In this document: positions 32,467 through 45,401 of the stretch, piece by piece | How the letters are laid out: each line of letters begins with the position of its first letter | Numbering within the stretch: the first letter of the stretch is position 1 | Source: Escherichia phage V18 | Sequence record: NC_041937.1 | Length of the DNA stretch: 64,000 bases | Strand: one strand, 5' to 3' | The notes under the pieces: model-generated | What the model was told of the DNA's origin: nothing | The model's database searches: none | Seen by the model: the letters and a program-made list of their open reading frames with translations, nothing else | Position numbers and translations under genes: made by a program

Positions 32467-32593
32467 CGCACAATTAGCTGCCCGGCTAAAGTGCTGGAAG
32501 CACCTATAACACATCTTTCAACTAAATTTCCTACCACCACAATCACTTACCTCCCGCACATGACTGTTTGCTTGTTTAGTGAGCAGTCATGCC

Positions 32594-32621
32594 TTGACAT
32601 TCTTGCCTATCCTGATAAAAT
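32594..32621 (+). promoter_or_regulatory. sigma70-like promoter (TTGACA-16-TAAAAT) firing into ORF-free DNA
   Basis: -35 at 32594-32599, -10 at 32616-32621; no credible ORF downstream. Confidence 0.5.
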
Positions 32622-33160
32622 TAAGTTCTTCTCTTTTCTTTTACCGAGTAATTCGGGTTTTCTGTTCTCTTCGGTTTGAAGGGGTATGGAGATACACCTG
32701 AGTGAACAGGGTGAACAACCGAACCATTAGCTATGGCATTAGCATGGCGAAGCGGACGGGTGACGAAAGAGGGGCCGGAGGACACCAGTCACTGCCATAT
32801 GATATATGGGTGATAACCTGAAGAGTCTGAATAAGTGTTTAAGTACCAGTCAGAGGAAAAGGTGAATGGTAGCCGAAGGGGGGAGGGGGGTTTCTTGTAT
32901 CTTTAATTTGTATATTATGTATACACTTGTAAACCAATCTAATCTGAATCTGTTTACCACACAAAGCGGATAGAGACAAATATTGCCTATTAAACTTGAA
33001 TTATTTATAGAAAATACCACAACACCCCTTAAGTCTTTGATTTACACACAAATCCTACAGATATTCAACCTCCATATTTAACATACTTGTAACATATTCC
33101 ATACTCTACCTGTCTGATCAATTTCCCAACTACATTCTCATATTTTCCCTGTCTGTACTA

Positions 33161-33356
33161 CCCCTGCCCCGCCGGGAGTCCCGTCATATCTGGCTTTCCA
33201 GCAAATATCACACCCACAAATATCATTGCCTGAAGAGGGTTTCATCCCATAATACCTGCCTTACCTGAAGAGCGCTTCATACACCACGTAAATTTTTTAA
33301 TTGACCTCCCCCTGCCCCTCCGGAGAGGTTGGCTTTTCCCACACAGACCTGAAGAG
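33161..33356. repeat. cluster of short direct repeats
   Basis: cccctgcccc-g/t-ccgg-g-ag at 33161 and 33308; cctgaagag at 33229, 33264, 33348. Confidence 0.5.
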
Positions 33357-33976
33357 TCAGCCAGAAATATCTGAATAGGCCCGATCTGCCCAGTCAGGAG
33401 CCAGTAGCGACTGGAGTGCTGCCAGGCGGACGGAATGGGAATACTTCTCATTCTTATAACAATTCTCAAATATCGAGGCAGTGAGAGAAATTAATAGGCC
33501 AGGCCGTTCACACAGTGGCACAACATTTGCAACCTATCCTGTGGGGATGAATGAGAATACCTATCATTGTGAGAACTATTATCATTACGGGCAATTTAAC
33601 ATAATACCCATTATGCGCACCACTGGCGATACATACAGGGATTGATACCATGAGTTACAGTTTACACACATAACAATTATATTTCTTACTATTTGTGTGG
33701 GATATAGTTAGCAGCCAATAGATTAGATATTGACCTGTAGACTTCCAACCGTCTGGACGTCTAAACGCCCACACACCAAGGGTTATACATACATCGCTGA
33801 ATGTAAACAGGGCCGCAAAAATGCTACCATACCAGTTTGTAAATTTTTCATGCAGCACTTGACAAAGAGGAGAAAAACTTGTCTGACACAATGTCACACA
33901 ATATGACACTTTACACTGGACACACTAGGCACAAAAAAAAAAAACTGCAGTGACTAGGTCACCCCTTCAGGTGTTT

Positions 33977-34171
33977 CTATGACATAATATAAAAGCAGGG
34001 CAACTATTACAAATCTAAAGTTGCCTTGCTTGTTATGTCATGATTAACTAAATACAAGGCAACTATGATCTGATTAATAGTTTGCAGACAAACTATCACG
34101 GGGGTGATGGTTACTGCTTTTATATTATGTCGCGACTCCGTCGCGCCATGCCATTCGTTTGCATAGTTGCC
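33977..34171. repeat. palindrome-flanked iteron cluster
   Basis: 19-bp inverted arms at 33980-33998 and 34114-34132; GGCAACTAT copies at 33999, 34048, 34087 (variant) and inverted at 34017, 34163. Confidence 0.55.
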
Positions 34172-34824
34172 TTATTGTTACAGATAAAATAATTGTATTG
34201 TTAATTATTTCTTATCTTTCTATTAGTCATCTAATGATTCCAGTTAGTATAGTAACGTATAGTAAACATTAGACGACTAAATATTTCTCTGTTTATGATA
34301 ACTCACCGTAATAATTTCGGACTGTTTACGAAAAATGTTGACACCCTGGCTGATTTATGTTATGCAATTTAAACGAATAATTATTTTATGCAGGTATTGA
34401 CTATTCCGTTATTCTATGGTTGGAATAAATACTTAGCAGGCTATAGAATGGTGAGCGTACGTAAATTCTGAGATCTGTCGGCTATAGTTATACCCGATTT
34501 TTCACGTAGAACACGCTTTCGATGCTGTGTAAGTGTATGACTTATAAAGATTTTTAGTTGTTGACAAGATATTGGAGATGTGCATCAGGTTAAAATTTGT
34601 GCAATAGCGGCATTACGTGCACTTTTGGGAGAGAAAACGGGTAAAAATGGACTTGCTACCACACAATGAAAAATTATGCAATAGCTATTTTACATGTATG
34701 TTTGTACAGTGCGGGCAATTGATGGCTCGTCAATTATTCCACTTGCCAGGTAGGGCCGTTTATGGTAGGGGGAAGAGCAGACAAAAAGAAAGGGGCCTAA
34801 GCCCTTGATAATTCAGTTAAAAAA

Positions 34825-35244
34825 TTATAATGATTCGTATATTTCAAAAATCCGATTTGCCAGGTCGTTACGGTAGCGGAATTTTTCCTCACGTTTGATC
34901 ATCAGATCTTTAAAGCCATATTCTTTAAGCACTTCATTAACTTTATGGCGGCACACCTTCATATTATCTTGAGCGTCACCAATAAACTTGTTGCTGTGGT
35001 GCATTGCTTTAATTTCTTCTTCCAGGACCAGGGCAACTACCCGGACCGGATCAAGCTGGTAGGCGGTAACATCGATGCGGCATTGTAGACGGCTTTTAAC
35101 GTCTGCCACCGGATATACTGCAACCTCTTCCCCGTCAACATTGACAATAACTAGTTTACCATCGATCTCGAATCCTTTCGCCGCCGGACCGTGACAAAAA
35201 GCGTTATCAAAGCTATATGCCGGATTATTAGATTTAATGTTCAT
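34825..35244 (-). CDS. hypothetical protein (last gene of minus arm)
   Basis: 139 aa; RBS AGAGGTAAA upstream. Confidence 0.4.
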   Translation of the reverse strand: MNIKSNNPAYSFDNAFCHGPAAKGFEIDGKLVIVNVDGEEVAVYPVADVKSRLQCRIDVTAYQLDPVRVVALVLEEEIKAMHHSNKFIGDAQDNMKVCRHKVNEVLKEYGFKDLMIKREEKFRYRNDLANRIFEIYESL

Positions 35245-39877: not shown

Positions 39878-40180
39878 TTAGATTAACGCGTGCAATTCTT
39901 CGGTGGTGCTCATACCGGGCACGGGCTGATTGTATACTGCAAAACGACCGCCTGCATAATCATAGGCCAGGGTTAAATCACACTGGATCATCTTTTTGAT
40001 CATGGCATTAAGCATGGCGTTAGCCGCATATTGATCACGTTTTAAAGGCAACTCTTTGATTAGTTTGCGATAGTTTTCGATATGGTCGCACACTGTTTCA
40101 CGAGGAAGATCTTTCATATCCTCGCGAAAGGTAACCAGGTTAAACATAACGGTGTCAATAGCTTTGGTAGTGTTTTTCAT
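39878..40180 (-). CDS. hypothetical protein
   Basis: RBS AAAGAGGA before ATG 40180. Confidence 0.4.
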   Translation of the reverse strand: MKNTTKAIDTVMFNLVTFREDMKDLPRETVCDHIENYRKLIKELPLKRDQYAANAMLNAMIKKMIQCDLTLAYDYAGGRFAVYNQPVPGMSTTEELHALI

Positions 40181-40268
40181 GATGTTATCCTCTTTGTTTT
40201 GTGTGGGGCAAATCATCGCCCCCTTGAGTTTTAATATAGCAGGTTTTTAGGTTATTGCAACACTTTAT

Positions 40269-44215: not shown

Positions 44216-44386
44216 TCAACCATTGGTTAGAATTATTTTTTGGGCAGAATCCCCGCCCAGGTTAACCATCATTTTTTCGTACTCTTCTTTATGTTCCAAT
44301 GCTTCCGTTTTAGCCTTTTCGACCAGGGTGATAGCCTCAGCGTCATTAATCGCTACATTTCCCAGGTGAGTAGCATTACCTTTCAT
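44216..44386 (-). CDS. hypothetical small protein (56 aa)
   Basis: strong RBS GAGGAGGT 7 nt before ATG; translation checked by hand. Confidence 0.4.
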   Translation of the reverse strand: MKGNATHLGNVAINDAEAITLVEKAKTEALEHKEEYEKMMVNLGGDSAQKIILTNG

Positions 44387-44544
44387 TTTTGTACCTCCTC
44401 TTCAATTGTTTACCCTACAGCATGGGCCTACCAGGTTTGCAAGATTTCACCCTCTCCCACCTGGTCAGTTAGGTCCTGCCAGGCTGGCCCCGCCAGGTTG
44501 CAGCGGTTGGCGCATTATGTTAGAAAAAAAATTTTGAAAAGGTG

Positions 44545-44573
44545 TTGACAGCGGCCCCGCCAGGTGGCACAAT
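44545..44573 (+). promoter_or_regulatory. sigma70-like promoter on the plus strand inside the minus arm
   Basis: TTGACA at 44545-44550, 17-nt GC-rich spacer, CACAAT. Confidence 0.4.
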
Positions 44574-44670
44574 ATACCTATCGAAAGGACGGCAGGCACC
44601 GGTGACGGGGGAGACAACCACCGGGGATGGGCGCTGCATAAAATGAGAACGGTTATCATTATCATTTAAA
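44574..44670 (+). ncRNA. candidate small non-coding element, copy 1
   Basis: no ORF; GGGAGACAACCACCGGGG core and GAGAACGGTTATCATTATCATT tail; paralogous to 44720-44800. Confidence 0.3.
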
Positions 44671-44719
44671 AATTTATGCAAAAAATCCTTGCTTTCTTTG
44701 TCCTGTGTGATACTATAAT

Positions 44720-44800
44720 AACAAGCCGGGGCAACAGGGGCCGGGAGACAATCACCGGGCCTGCCCGTTATTCTGCAAACGAGAATGATTATCATTCAAA
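44720..44800 (+). ncRNA. candidate small non-coding element, copy 2
   Basis: TATAAT at 44714-44719 upstream; GGGAGACAATCACCGGG core and palindrome GAATGATTATCATTC. Confidence 0.3.
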
Positions 44801-44913
44801 ATTCTAAATGAGAACTCCTCGCATTTAACAAATTTAATTAGCATGCTAATTACCTTCCGTAACAATTTCCTATAAAATAGTACCCCATAAAATATTCCCA
44901 TATAGAAATTTTA

Positions 44914-45089
44914 AAAATCCATTTCTGAAAACGAAAAATCGATTTCGTTCCCAAAAATTTTAGACCTGGTGCTGGACCAATTTCAAGAAAATCCGATTCA
45001 GAAAACGAAAAACAGATCGAGTACCGAAAAATTTATCGAGAAAAATTTTCAGAAAATTCAATCTTTGAAACGAAAAACAGATCGAGTAC
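44914..45089. repeat. tandem direct repeats (three units of ~66-74 bp)
   Basis: gaaaacgaaaaa(c/t)... at 44927, 45001, 45067; a 23-mer is identical between units 2 and 3. Confidence 0.7.
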
Positions 45090-45401
45090 TTGGAAAGCTG
45101 TGCCGCAACTTCAAGATAGTGGTTGGATTATTACCATAAAAGGTCAAGGGTAAGCGGAGGAAGTTCCCGTAGAAGGGTGTGAGCATGTGCGGGAAATCTG
45201 TAATGGTGATCTGGAATATGGTGCAAACGATAGGATGAGTGATTCATCTCGTCGTGCCTGCTCTGAAAAATCCATTTTAGTTTTCGATCCATTTTCTGAT
45301 TTTCTAAGGATTTTAAAATATCCGGGCAGGTAAAATATCAAAAGGAGGAAATCCATTTTAGAAATCCCCCTTACACTTGATATGCCAGGAATTTTCAAGT
45401 A

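Follow-up and report, generated by a model that had tools for sequence, protein, structure and literature searches.

Toxin promoters of temperate phages are known to be placed under iron regulators, as with stx1 under Fur, the ferric uptake regulator, and corynephage tox under DtxR. Virulent cyanophages carry boxes for host factors, namely 'pho boxes' for PhoB and sites for NtcA, and these precede auxiliary metabolic genes. It is also well known that a multicopy plasmid with one Fur box is sufficient to titrate Fur, a principle on which the Fur titration assay (FURTA) is built. On phage-derived DNA, the Qin cryptic prophage has upstream of nohA a Fur site that scores 22.3 bits and was confirmed by gel shift, in a study that also describes FURTA and reports clusters of Fur sites shifted by 3 and 6 bp as typical (PMC2189734). 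Here we describe a 19-bp inverted repeat in Escherichia phage V18 (NC_041937.1), of which a stretch of 64,000 nucleotides, hereafter the window, was analysed. Six copies of the repeat, and possibly a seventh, were found, and we consider it reasonably probable that these boxes are operator sites for the Fur protein of the host. No description of Fur boxes in Vequintavirinae or in lytic phages was found in the literature searched.

The inverted repeat and its copies

The boxes lie in two islands from which credible open reading frames (ORFs) are absent. Island 1 (about 32470-34820) is flanked by convergent gene blocks and is drawn in the rV5 genome paper as an ORF-free box labelled 'non-coding' (PMC3606486); island 2 (about 44390-45140) is flanked by two minus-strand gene blocks. 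Both island regions are matched at 90-99% identity by more than 100 rV5-like phages of the genus Vequintavirus, and rV5 positions of about 69.9-137.0 kb are collinear with the window, which by these matches is that of an rV5-like virulent Vequintavirus of E. coli.

A preliminary description of this DNA had reported the asymmetric motif GAGAAY-N3-TATCATT (GAGAAYNNNTATCATT) in four copies restricted to the two islands. The four copies (33553-33568, 33571-33586, 44645-44660 and 44781-44796) were recovered as the only exact ones in the 64 kb, all inside the islands and all on the + strand, against 0.01 expected by chance, and none of 100 shuffles reached four. The sequence itself likewise bears out the back-to-back placement of two copies at 33553-33587 (2 x 18 nt), and the claimed perfect palindrome is present as GAATGATTATCATTC at 44783-44797, a perfect 7-1-7 dyad. 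What had to be revised was the unit and, with it, the number of copies. The four exact copies stand, but the true unit, as read from all copies, is a 19-bp inverted repeat, AATGAGAAT-N-ATTMTCATT, and not the asymmetric pattern; it has six copies, two of them degenerate. The pattern that was noted first can be read as this palindrome, its left half being of the G type and its right half of the canonical T type. The degenerate copies, at 33437 and 44810, were found once mismatches were allowed, and the six copies with at most two mismatches to ATGAGAA-N3-TTCTCAT are all within the two islands.

The geometry of the unit is 7-1-7, TGAKAAT-N-ATTMTCA, as in Fur boxes. The consensus of 26 copies from seven phages is AAATGAGAAT-G-ATTCTCATT. 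Among the 25 distinct phage copies, G is found at -4 of the left half in 21, and +4 of the right half is C in 15 and A in 9.

The individual boxes were scored with two matrices. The E. coli matrix is a palindromic 19-mer derived de novo, with no phage input, from eight Fur-regulated promoter regions of K-12 (three ent/fep regions, fhuA, cirA, exbB, fecI and ryhB); the phage matrix is symmetrised and was built from phage copies alone. In island 1, box 0 (33434-33452, AATGGGAATACTTCTCATT) is a degenerate Fur-like site with 14.7 bits by the E. coli matrix and 22.5 bits by a phage matrix built without the Vequintavirus copies, and it is kept in seven Vequintavirus genomes, in which only the central 3 nt change. 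Box 1 (33550-33568, AATGAGAATACCTATCATT; 18.6 bits by the E. coli matrix) and box 2 (33568-33586, TGTGAGAACTATTATCATT; 18.5 bits) are the first two of the copies noted before and contain the exact motif. A 17-mer of box 1 is invariant in the seven genomes; in box 2, placed 18 bp from box 1, the central triplet varies (CTA, TAG or CCT) and the half-sites are retained. This pair is annotated in the record of phage navn merely as a 36-nt 'repeat_region', for which no interpretation was found in records or literature. ToxI-like antitoxin repeats were considered for it, prompted by the pseudo-ToxI of the related phage phiTE, in which tandem repeats are about 36 nt long, and by the 36-nt annotation, and were rejected: the best match to the ToxI sequence is 20-21 of 36 and equals chance level, and the 36-nt repeat of navn is simply boxes 1 and 2 (2 x 18 nt).

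In island 2, box 3 (44642-44666, AATGAGAACGGTTATCATT; 25.5 bits) follows the putative promoter P_A and is overlapped by a second site shifted by 6 bp (44648-44666, 16.0 bits). Box 4 (44778-44796, AACGAGAATGATTATCATT), which follows the putative promoter P_B, has the best match of the window (26.6 bits); it is invariant in eight Vequintavirus genomes, and an equivalent, AATGAGAATGATTATCATT, was found in phiTE, KNP2, Mydo and GAP31. Box 5 (44807-44825, AATGAGAACTCCTCGCATT) lies 29 bp from box 4, a spacing equal to that in other genera, and scores 12.1 bits by the E. coli matrix and 20.5 bits by the phage matrix. A possible weak seventh box, of uncertain status, is located at the right edge of island 1 (34823-34841, AATTATAATGATTCGTATA; 15.4 bits); it overlaps the 3' end of a gene on the - strand (34825-35244) and is also found in rV5 at 106616.

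Correspondence with Fur operators and conservation

The preliminary description had likened the motif to the core of the Fur box, and this resemblance holds by the classical consensus, by the E. coli matrix and by the phage matrix alike. Against the classical 19-mer GATAATGATAATCATTATC, the two best matches of the window are copies 3 and 4 of the motif as first noted (16/19 and 15/19), and the phage consensus TGAGAAT-N-ATTCTCA differs from the 7-1-7 Fur consensus TGATAATnATTATCA at one symmetric position. The E. coli matrix, whose consensus AATGATAATCATTATCATT shares the register of the phage motif, has G/C at ±4 at a frequency of 0.25. It ranks the four copies first to fourth in the window (26.6, 25.5, 18.6 and 18.5 bits), where random first-order windows give a mean maximum of 14.3 bits, and seven matches of at least 14 bits were obtained against 0.65 expected. 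Its top eight matches in the window are all inside the two islands. The motif is not found at similar strength in coding DNA, in which the best match reaches 9.8 bits as against 12-27 bits for the boxes.

The reverse comparison was made with the phage matrix over positions 590000-639999 of E. coli K-12. The seven best matches in these 50 kb all fall in the fepA-fes, fepD-entS and fepB-entC intergenic regions, that is, in three Fur-regulated divergent ent/fep promoter regions that make up 726 bp of the DNA scanned. On the complete rV5 genome (137,947 bp), the phage matrix built without Vequintavirus copies gave four matches of 23-27 bits, all in the islands, with the rest at 16 bits or less, and the strongest matches of the E. 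coli matrix were again restricted to the two islands.

Boxes 3 and 4 score level with the best E. coli training sites, and the G-type half-site TGAGAAT is native to K-12, being found in the best sites of fecI (TATGAGAATGGTTATCATT), ryhB (AATAATAATCATTCTCATT), fhuA and exbB. In addition, the Fur boxes listed for iron transporters that Fur represses in Enterococcus faecalis include TGAGAATGATTCTCA and TGAGAACGATTCTCA (PMC6056675), and the Fur-box consensus of Xanthomonas campestris is AATGAgAATcATTctCATT (PMC1790865). The boxes are also clustered as for multimeric Fur, with the 6-bp-shifted site at box 3, with distances of 18 or 29 bp and in arrays of two to four. By sequence, the boxes are indistinguishable from strong E. 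coli Fur boxes. An operator for a host regulator, one of the two options that the preliminary description had suggested, is the best-supported reading and is predicted from these sequence tests; that Fur binds the boxes is, in our judgement, somewhat probable.

It would be extremely unlikely that the copies are non-functional, as chance similarities in AT-rich DNA or as relics of a duplicated segment. The islands are indeed AT-rich and repeat-rich, and units A and B of island 2 are paralogous. The expectation for the exact motif and the null maxima, however, are far under what was observed, and the half-sites are kept across five genera though the surrounding non-coding DNA has diverged past alignment. 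That the copies of both islands stem from a segmental duplication was rejected, as the flanks of the island 1 copies and the island 2 copies are not homologous.

The pattern of substitutions was taken from alignments of seven to eight Vequintavirus genomes. Of the 84 half-site columns of the six boxes, 4 are variable, compared with 73 of the 495 remaining non-coding columns (p=0.009) and with 7 of the 18 columns of the central triplet (p=0.0004 for half-sites against centre). Conserved half-sites around a variable centre are the pattern expected of a dimeric protein that contacts two half-sites. The sites are non-random, confined to non-coding DNA and conserved with a protein-operator substitution pattern.

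Conserved arms around a variable centre would also fit the stem and loop of an RNA. The motif could act in the transcripts of P_A and P_B, either as 7-bp hairpins, AUGAGAA-N3-UUCUCAU, in termination or processing, or as Ile-rich leader peptides; we regard this as very unlikely. Perfect palindromes would fold as hairpins, and several copies begin with ATG or GTG and open short ORFs rich in Ile codons, such as ATGAGAACGGTTATCATTATCATTTAA (MRTVIIII*). Yet the most conserved copy retains an uncompensated G/A mismatch in the middle of the supposed stem in four genera, no compensatory changes and no Rfam family match were found, and the reciprocal match to the Fur promoters of E. coli would be left unexplained. 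The leader peptides (MRTVIIII*, MRIPIIVRTIIITGNLT, MRMIIIQxxK) were rejected as candidates: the tiny ORFs are without a Shine-Dalgarno sequence, their stop codons come from the next box, and the codon constraint does not fit, with a fixed T at the third codon position while the first and second positions vary.

Part of island 2, at 44741-44832, is conserved well outside the genus Vequintavirus. Counterparts were found in Certrevirus (phiTE, CR8, F2M1E), Mydovirus (KNP2, Mydo), Seunavirus (GAP31, GEC_vB_MG, LNA4) and Phapecoctavirus (phiWec179). In these other genera the motif is a clear palindrome, ATGAGAA-N3-TTCTCAT, and arrays of one to four such boxes occupy the homologous non-coding module, scoring 15-29 bits by the E. 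coli matrix and typically spaced 29 bp apart. The hosts of the array-bearing phages are Pectobacterium, Cronobacter, Enterobacter, Klebsiella, Proteus, Salmonella and E. coli. Searches with 33000-34600 and 44380-45200 of the window also returned, at 93-96% identity, about 16-19 GenBank entries that carry the name 'Campylobacter phage', MG065658 and MG065646 among them; these entries are probably mislabelled or contaminated.

Furthermore, an exact scan found the perfect 19-mer in at least 120 IMG/VR viral contigs and the box-4 variant in 35. Many of the box-bearing contigs have no proteins in common with rV5, and their G+C content ranges from 32 to 59%. Arrays occur in such unrelated contigs too, with three perfect copies 30 bp apart in L077 and four copies 26 bp apart in L142, and box arrays are also present in contigs L093 and L154. 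The same site in unrelated phages points to a widely conserved host protein.

Two further observations were made on these contigs. In two viral contigs of low G+C content (33%; 115-139 kb), four to seven canonical T-type Fur-like boxes are accompanied by a G-type pair 28-29 bp apart (L145 13219-14420 and L153 279-1689). In unrelated contigs (L044 at about 1180-1400, and L136, L144, L146, L148, L150, L161 and L162), a Fur-like box stands among clusters of DnaA boxes (TTATCCACA / TGTGGATAA), and L044 has a T7 gp4-like primase-helicase gene about 2 kb from the box. These clusters suggest origin-like contexts.

Promoters, iterons and possible roles

Island 2 contains two promoter-like sequences on the + strand. 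P_A (44545-44573) is of the sigma-70 type, TTGACA-17-CACAAT with an upstream TG; it scored 10/12 with TG in the promoter scan, and its core is invariant in eight genomes. P_B (44689-44719), read from the sequence, is TTGCTT-19-TATAAT, and at its position other genera have TTGCAA-17-TATATT or similar, so that the architecture is kept while the sequence changes. Both putative promoters point rightward, opposite to the flanking genes, with no downstream ORF, and each is followed by a GC-rich block with GGGAGACAAYCACCGGG and then by a box. Between P_B and box 4 this block, GGGAGACAATCACCGGG...CTGCCCGTTATTCTGCAAA (44743-44777, + strand), is a GC-rich dyad that belongs to the direct repeat D7 and is conserved across genera; a paralogous copy is found at 44609-44625 (unit A). 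For the segment from P_B to box 4, RNAalifold gave no consensus structure and no covariation, while folds of single sequences give stems. A minus-strand promoter made of the conserved flanks, with the box as spacer (TTGAAT-18-CAGAAT), was rejected because the key A at position 2 of the -10 is not conserved (CGGAAT in phiTE, CTGAAT in KNP2).

Downstream of the box array are three iterons of about 47 nt with GATCGAGTAC-like cores (44914-45099, repeat family D1), which are spaced 74 and 65 nt apart and contain internal dyads. In other genera the array is followed by GATCGAGAAC and GATCGAGACC iterons and an A6T6 tract. The iteron block is a candidate for a replication origin, a packaging signal or another protein-binding array. 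A third putative promoter, P_C (TTGACA...TGnGAAAAT), is found in Seunavirus, Mydovirus and an L143-type contig, and there the last box ends 16-18 nt before the -35, which places the box centre near -62. A P_C-like promoter was not evident in Vequintavirus or Certrevirus.

How Fur would act at these sites can be proposed tentatively; in the sign and target of regulation, and in a version by roadblock or occlusion, our confidence is low. In iron-replete cells, dimers of Fe2+-Fur would occupy the boxes, and the distances of 18-29 bp together with the overlap shifted by 6 bp at box 3 would give contiguous, cooperative coverage. The array of island 2 lies between the rightward, ORF-less, presumably early promoters P_A and P_B and the iterons, and in some genera about 62 bp upstream of P_C. 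With the array in this place, Fur occupancy would gate non-coding transcription into the origin-like iteron region by iron status. Amplification of the phage DNA would also pull Fur off the operators of the host.

This last effect could itself be the selected function. The boxes would then bind Fur as an amplified sponge, and not for cis-regulation of phage transcripts, and would derepress the Fur regulon of the host (iron uptake, RyhB, nrdHIEF), so that iron-dependent enzymes of the phage are supplied. We hold this to be unlikely, although several observations agree with it. The phage boxes reach 26.6-28.6 bits as compared with 20-26.6 bits for the best host training sites, their number varies from one to four across genera with a second island in Vequintavirus, they do not overlap promoter cores, and rV5 has genes for ribonucleotide reductases of class Ia (NrdAB) and of the anaerobic type (NrdDG). 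A pure sponge, on the other hand, would need no fixed geometry. In all genera the first box stands at a fixed place with respect to P_B and to the conserved ATTCTGCAAAT block, and the promoter-proximal box is at a constant 16-18 nt from the P_C -35 in Seunavirus, Mydovirus and the L143 type. The sponge also presumes that derepression of the Fur regulon would help the phage.

Some points weigh against the reading as operators of host Fur. Classically a Fur box overlaps the -35 or -10 of its promoter, and no box here clearly does so at a convincing promoter; the boxes lie from about +55 to +140 relative to P_B and, where P_C is present, upstream of it, and boxes 1 and 2 are overlapped by weak promoter-like matches alone. 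These phages grow well in rich medium, and it would be odd if a transcript that activates their origin were repressed under iron-replete conditions; the direction of control is therefore uncertain. The G-type left half is found in 21 of 25 phage copies as against about 25% of E. coli half-sites, a bias that is unexplained and makes a different protein possible. The perfect G-type palindrome is absent from 5,426 E. coli genomes, and the literature search found no transcriptome of Vequintavirinae infection and no published Fur-binding results. As an observation apart, the closest near-match in E. coli chromosomes, AATGAGAATGAATCGCATT, occurs in YPE10 (L171 2500-2523) and four other genomes; it lies in a prophage, intergenic and directly upstream of terminase genes, and recalls the known nohA Fur site.

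Since the G-type bias is unexplained, a regulator encoded by the phage stays alive as a rival. The boxes would then be operators of a dimeric DNA-binding protein of the phage, a regulator or a replication initiator, with a specificity that is Fur-like by chance. The consistent G at -4 departs from the host average, the boxes adjoin iterons and promoters in a module conserved in the subfamily, and the annotation of rV5 includes gp153, a 'transcriptional regulator' located about 2.7 kb upstream of island 1, as well as gp075, a 'replication initiation protein'. We nevertheless find such a protein quite unlikely. The same 19-mer, also in arrays, is present in viral contigs without any protein in common with rV5, and the identity to bona fide Fur boxes would need a coincidence. 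Among the ten ORFs that flank the islands no DNA-binding Pfam domain was found; these include the gp153 homologue, and they gave no credible Pfam match, the one hit, to a leucine-rich repeat family of type III secretion, being below threshold. Nor do the genera have a conserved gene next to the boxes. A search for a Fur homologue (tblastn, E. coli Fur against 50,697 phage records) found none in Vequintavirinae.

With host Fur as the preferred reading, the presence of the arrays suggests that the phage reads or perturbs the iron status of the host. A wider proposal is that Vequintavirinae, Phapecoctavirus and apparently several unrelated lineages, with arrays of very strong Fur operators next to origin-like regions of iterons or DnaA boxes, use the iron sensor of the host, either for iron-coupled origin or primer transcription and replication or as an amplifiable Fur sponge; as a whole, this is doubtful for now. 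If true, either version would be the first case of a virulent phage that exploits the Fur regulon through DNA sites alone. If Fur binds, a link to the iron status of the host would be built into a large family of virulent enterobacterial phages that is used in therapy (rV5-like, PVP-SE1-like, phiTE-like and phAPEC8-like). Iron limitation is normal in the animal hosts where phages are applied, so iron control or derepression of siderophore receptors could affect therapy, with possible effects on efficacy, on receptor expression and on the expression of bacterial virulence genes. It would also offer a first lead on what the 'non-coding' region of rV5, for long without an explanation, may do, and likewise on a non-coding module that two phage subfamilies have kept.

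Other features were recorded near the boxes and elsewhere. Just 3' of box 5 is a perfect 18-bp palindrome, TAATTAGCATGCTAATTA (44835-44852), largely kept in Vequintavirus; it resembles TTAGCAAGCTAA, which we take to be the SlyA/MarR-type consensus. In other genera, a highly conserved element of about 90 nt, GACGCCACCCCACGGCGAAAAGGCGGGGCTAACGTACCGGGC...GGTCGGAAGGTGGATCGCCGG, is located downstream of P_A (phiTE, L002 1325-1420; also L003-L006 and L128-L131). It has pseudoknot-like complementarity and no Rfam match, is absent from the window and may be an undescribed structured RNA. Island 1 (32800-34200) is rich in short repeats, with ACCTGAAGAG three to four times, CTMCCCCTGCCCCKCCGG twice at a distance of 148 nt, and GGCAACTAT repeats; it also contains a perfect 18-nt inverted repeat (33981-33998 / 34114-34131). 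A weak Rfam match to the Clostridium-PBP RNA at 40178-40247 on the - strand (34.4 bits versus a gathering threshold of 94.4, E=0.18) is most likely due to chance.

Comparison with known systems

With the Fur operators of E. coli (fecI, ryhB, fhuA, exbB, cirA and ent/fep), the phage boxes share the same 19-bp inverted repeat, the register and top-level scores, and the sites of fecI, ryhB, fhuA and exbB have the G-type half-sites TGAGAAT / ATTCTCA as in the phage. The boxes of the host, however, overlap the cores of iron-uptake promoters, whereas those of the phage are in ORF-free DNA of a virulent phage, downstream of putative non-coding promoters and beside iterons, in arrays 18-29 bp apart and with a strong G-type bias. 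The sites of Xanthomonas campestris (AATGAgAATcATTctCATT) and Enterococcus faecalis (TGAGAATGATTCTCA, TGAGAACGATTCTCA) are identical letter for letter to the phage consensus and to single copies, which include AATGAGAATCATTCTCATT of phiWec179 and AATGAGAACGATTCTCATT of CR8; they differ in being upstream of chromosomal iron-transport genes in non-enterobacterial hosts.

The nohA site is alike in that an operator for the iron regulator of the host is carried on phage-derived DNA. In nohA, stx1 and tox, single operators are found at the promoters of protein-coding genes in temperate phages or cryptic prophages, in contrast to the arrays in non-coding modules of strictly virulent phages described here. 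The cyanophages offer the likeness of a lytic phage with sites for a nutrient-sensing regulator of the host, but the regulator and the nutrient are others, and their boxes precede metabolic genes, while here no gene is obviously controlled. Taken against these systems, the boxes differ, on the sequences compared, in their setting: in place of single operators at iron-gene promoters there are arrays, found in ORF-free modules that strictly virulent phages of two subfamilies have conserved.

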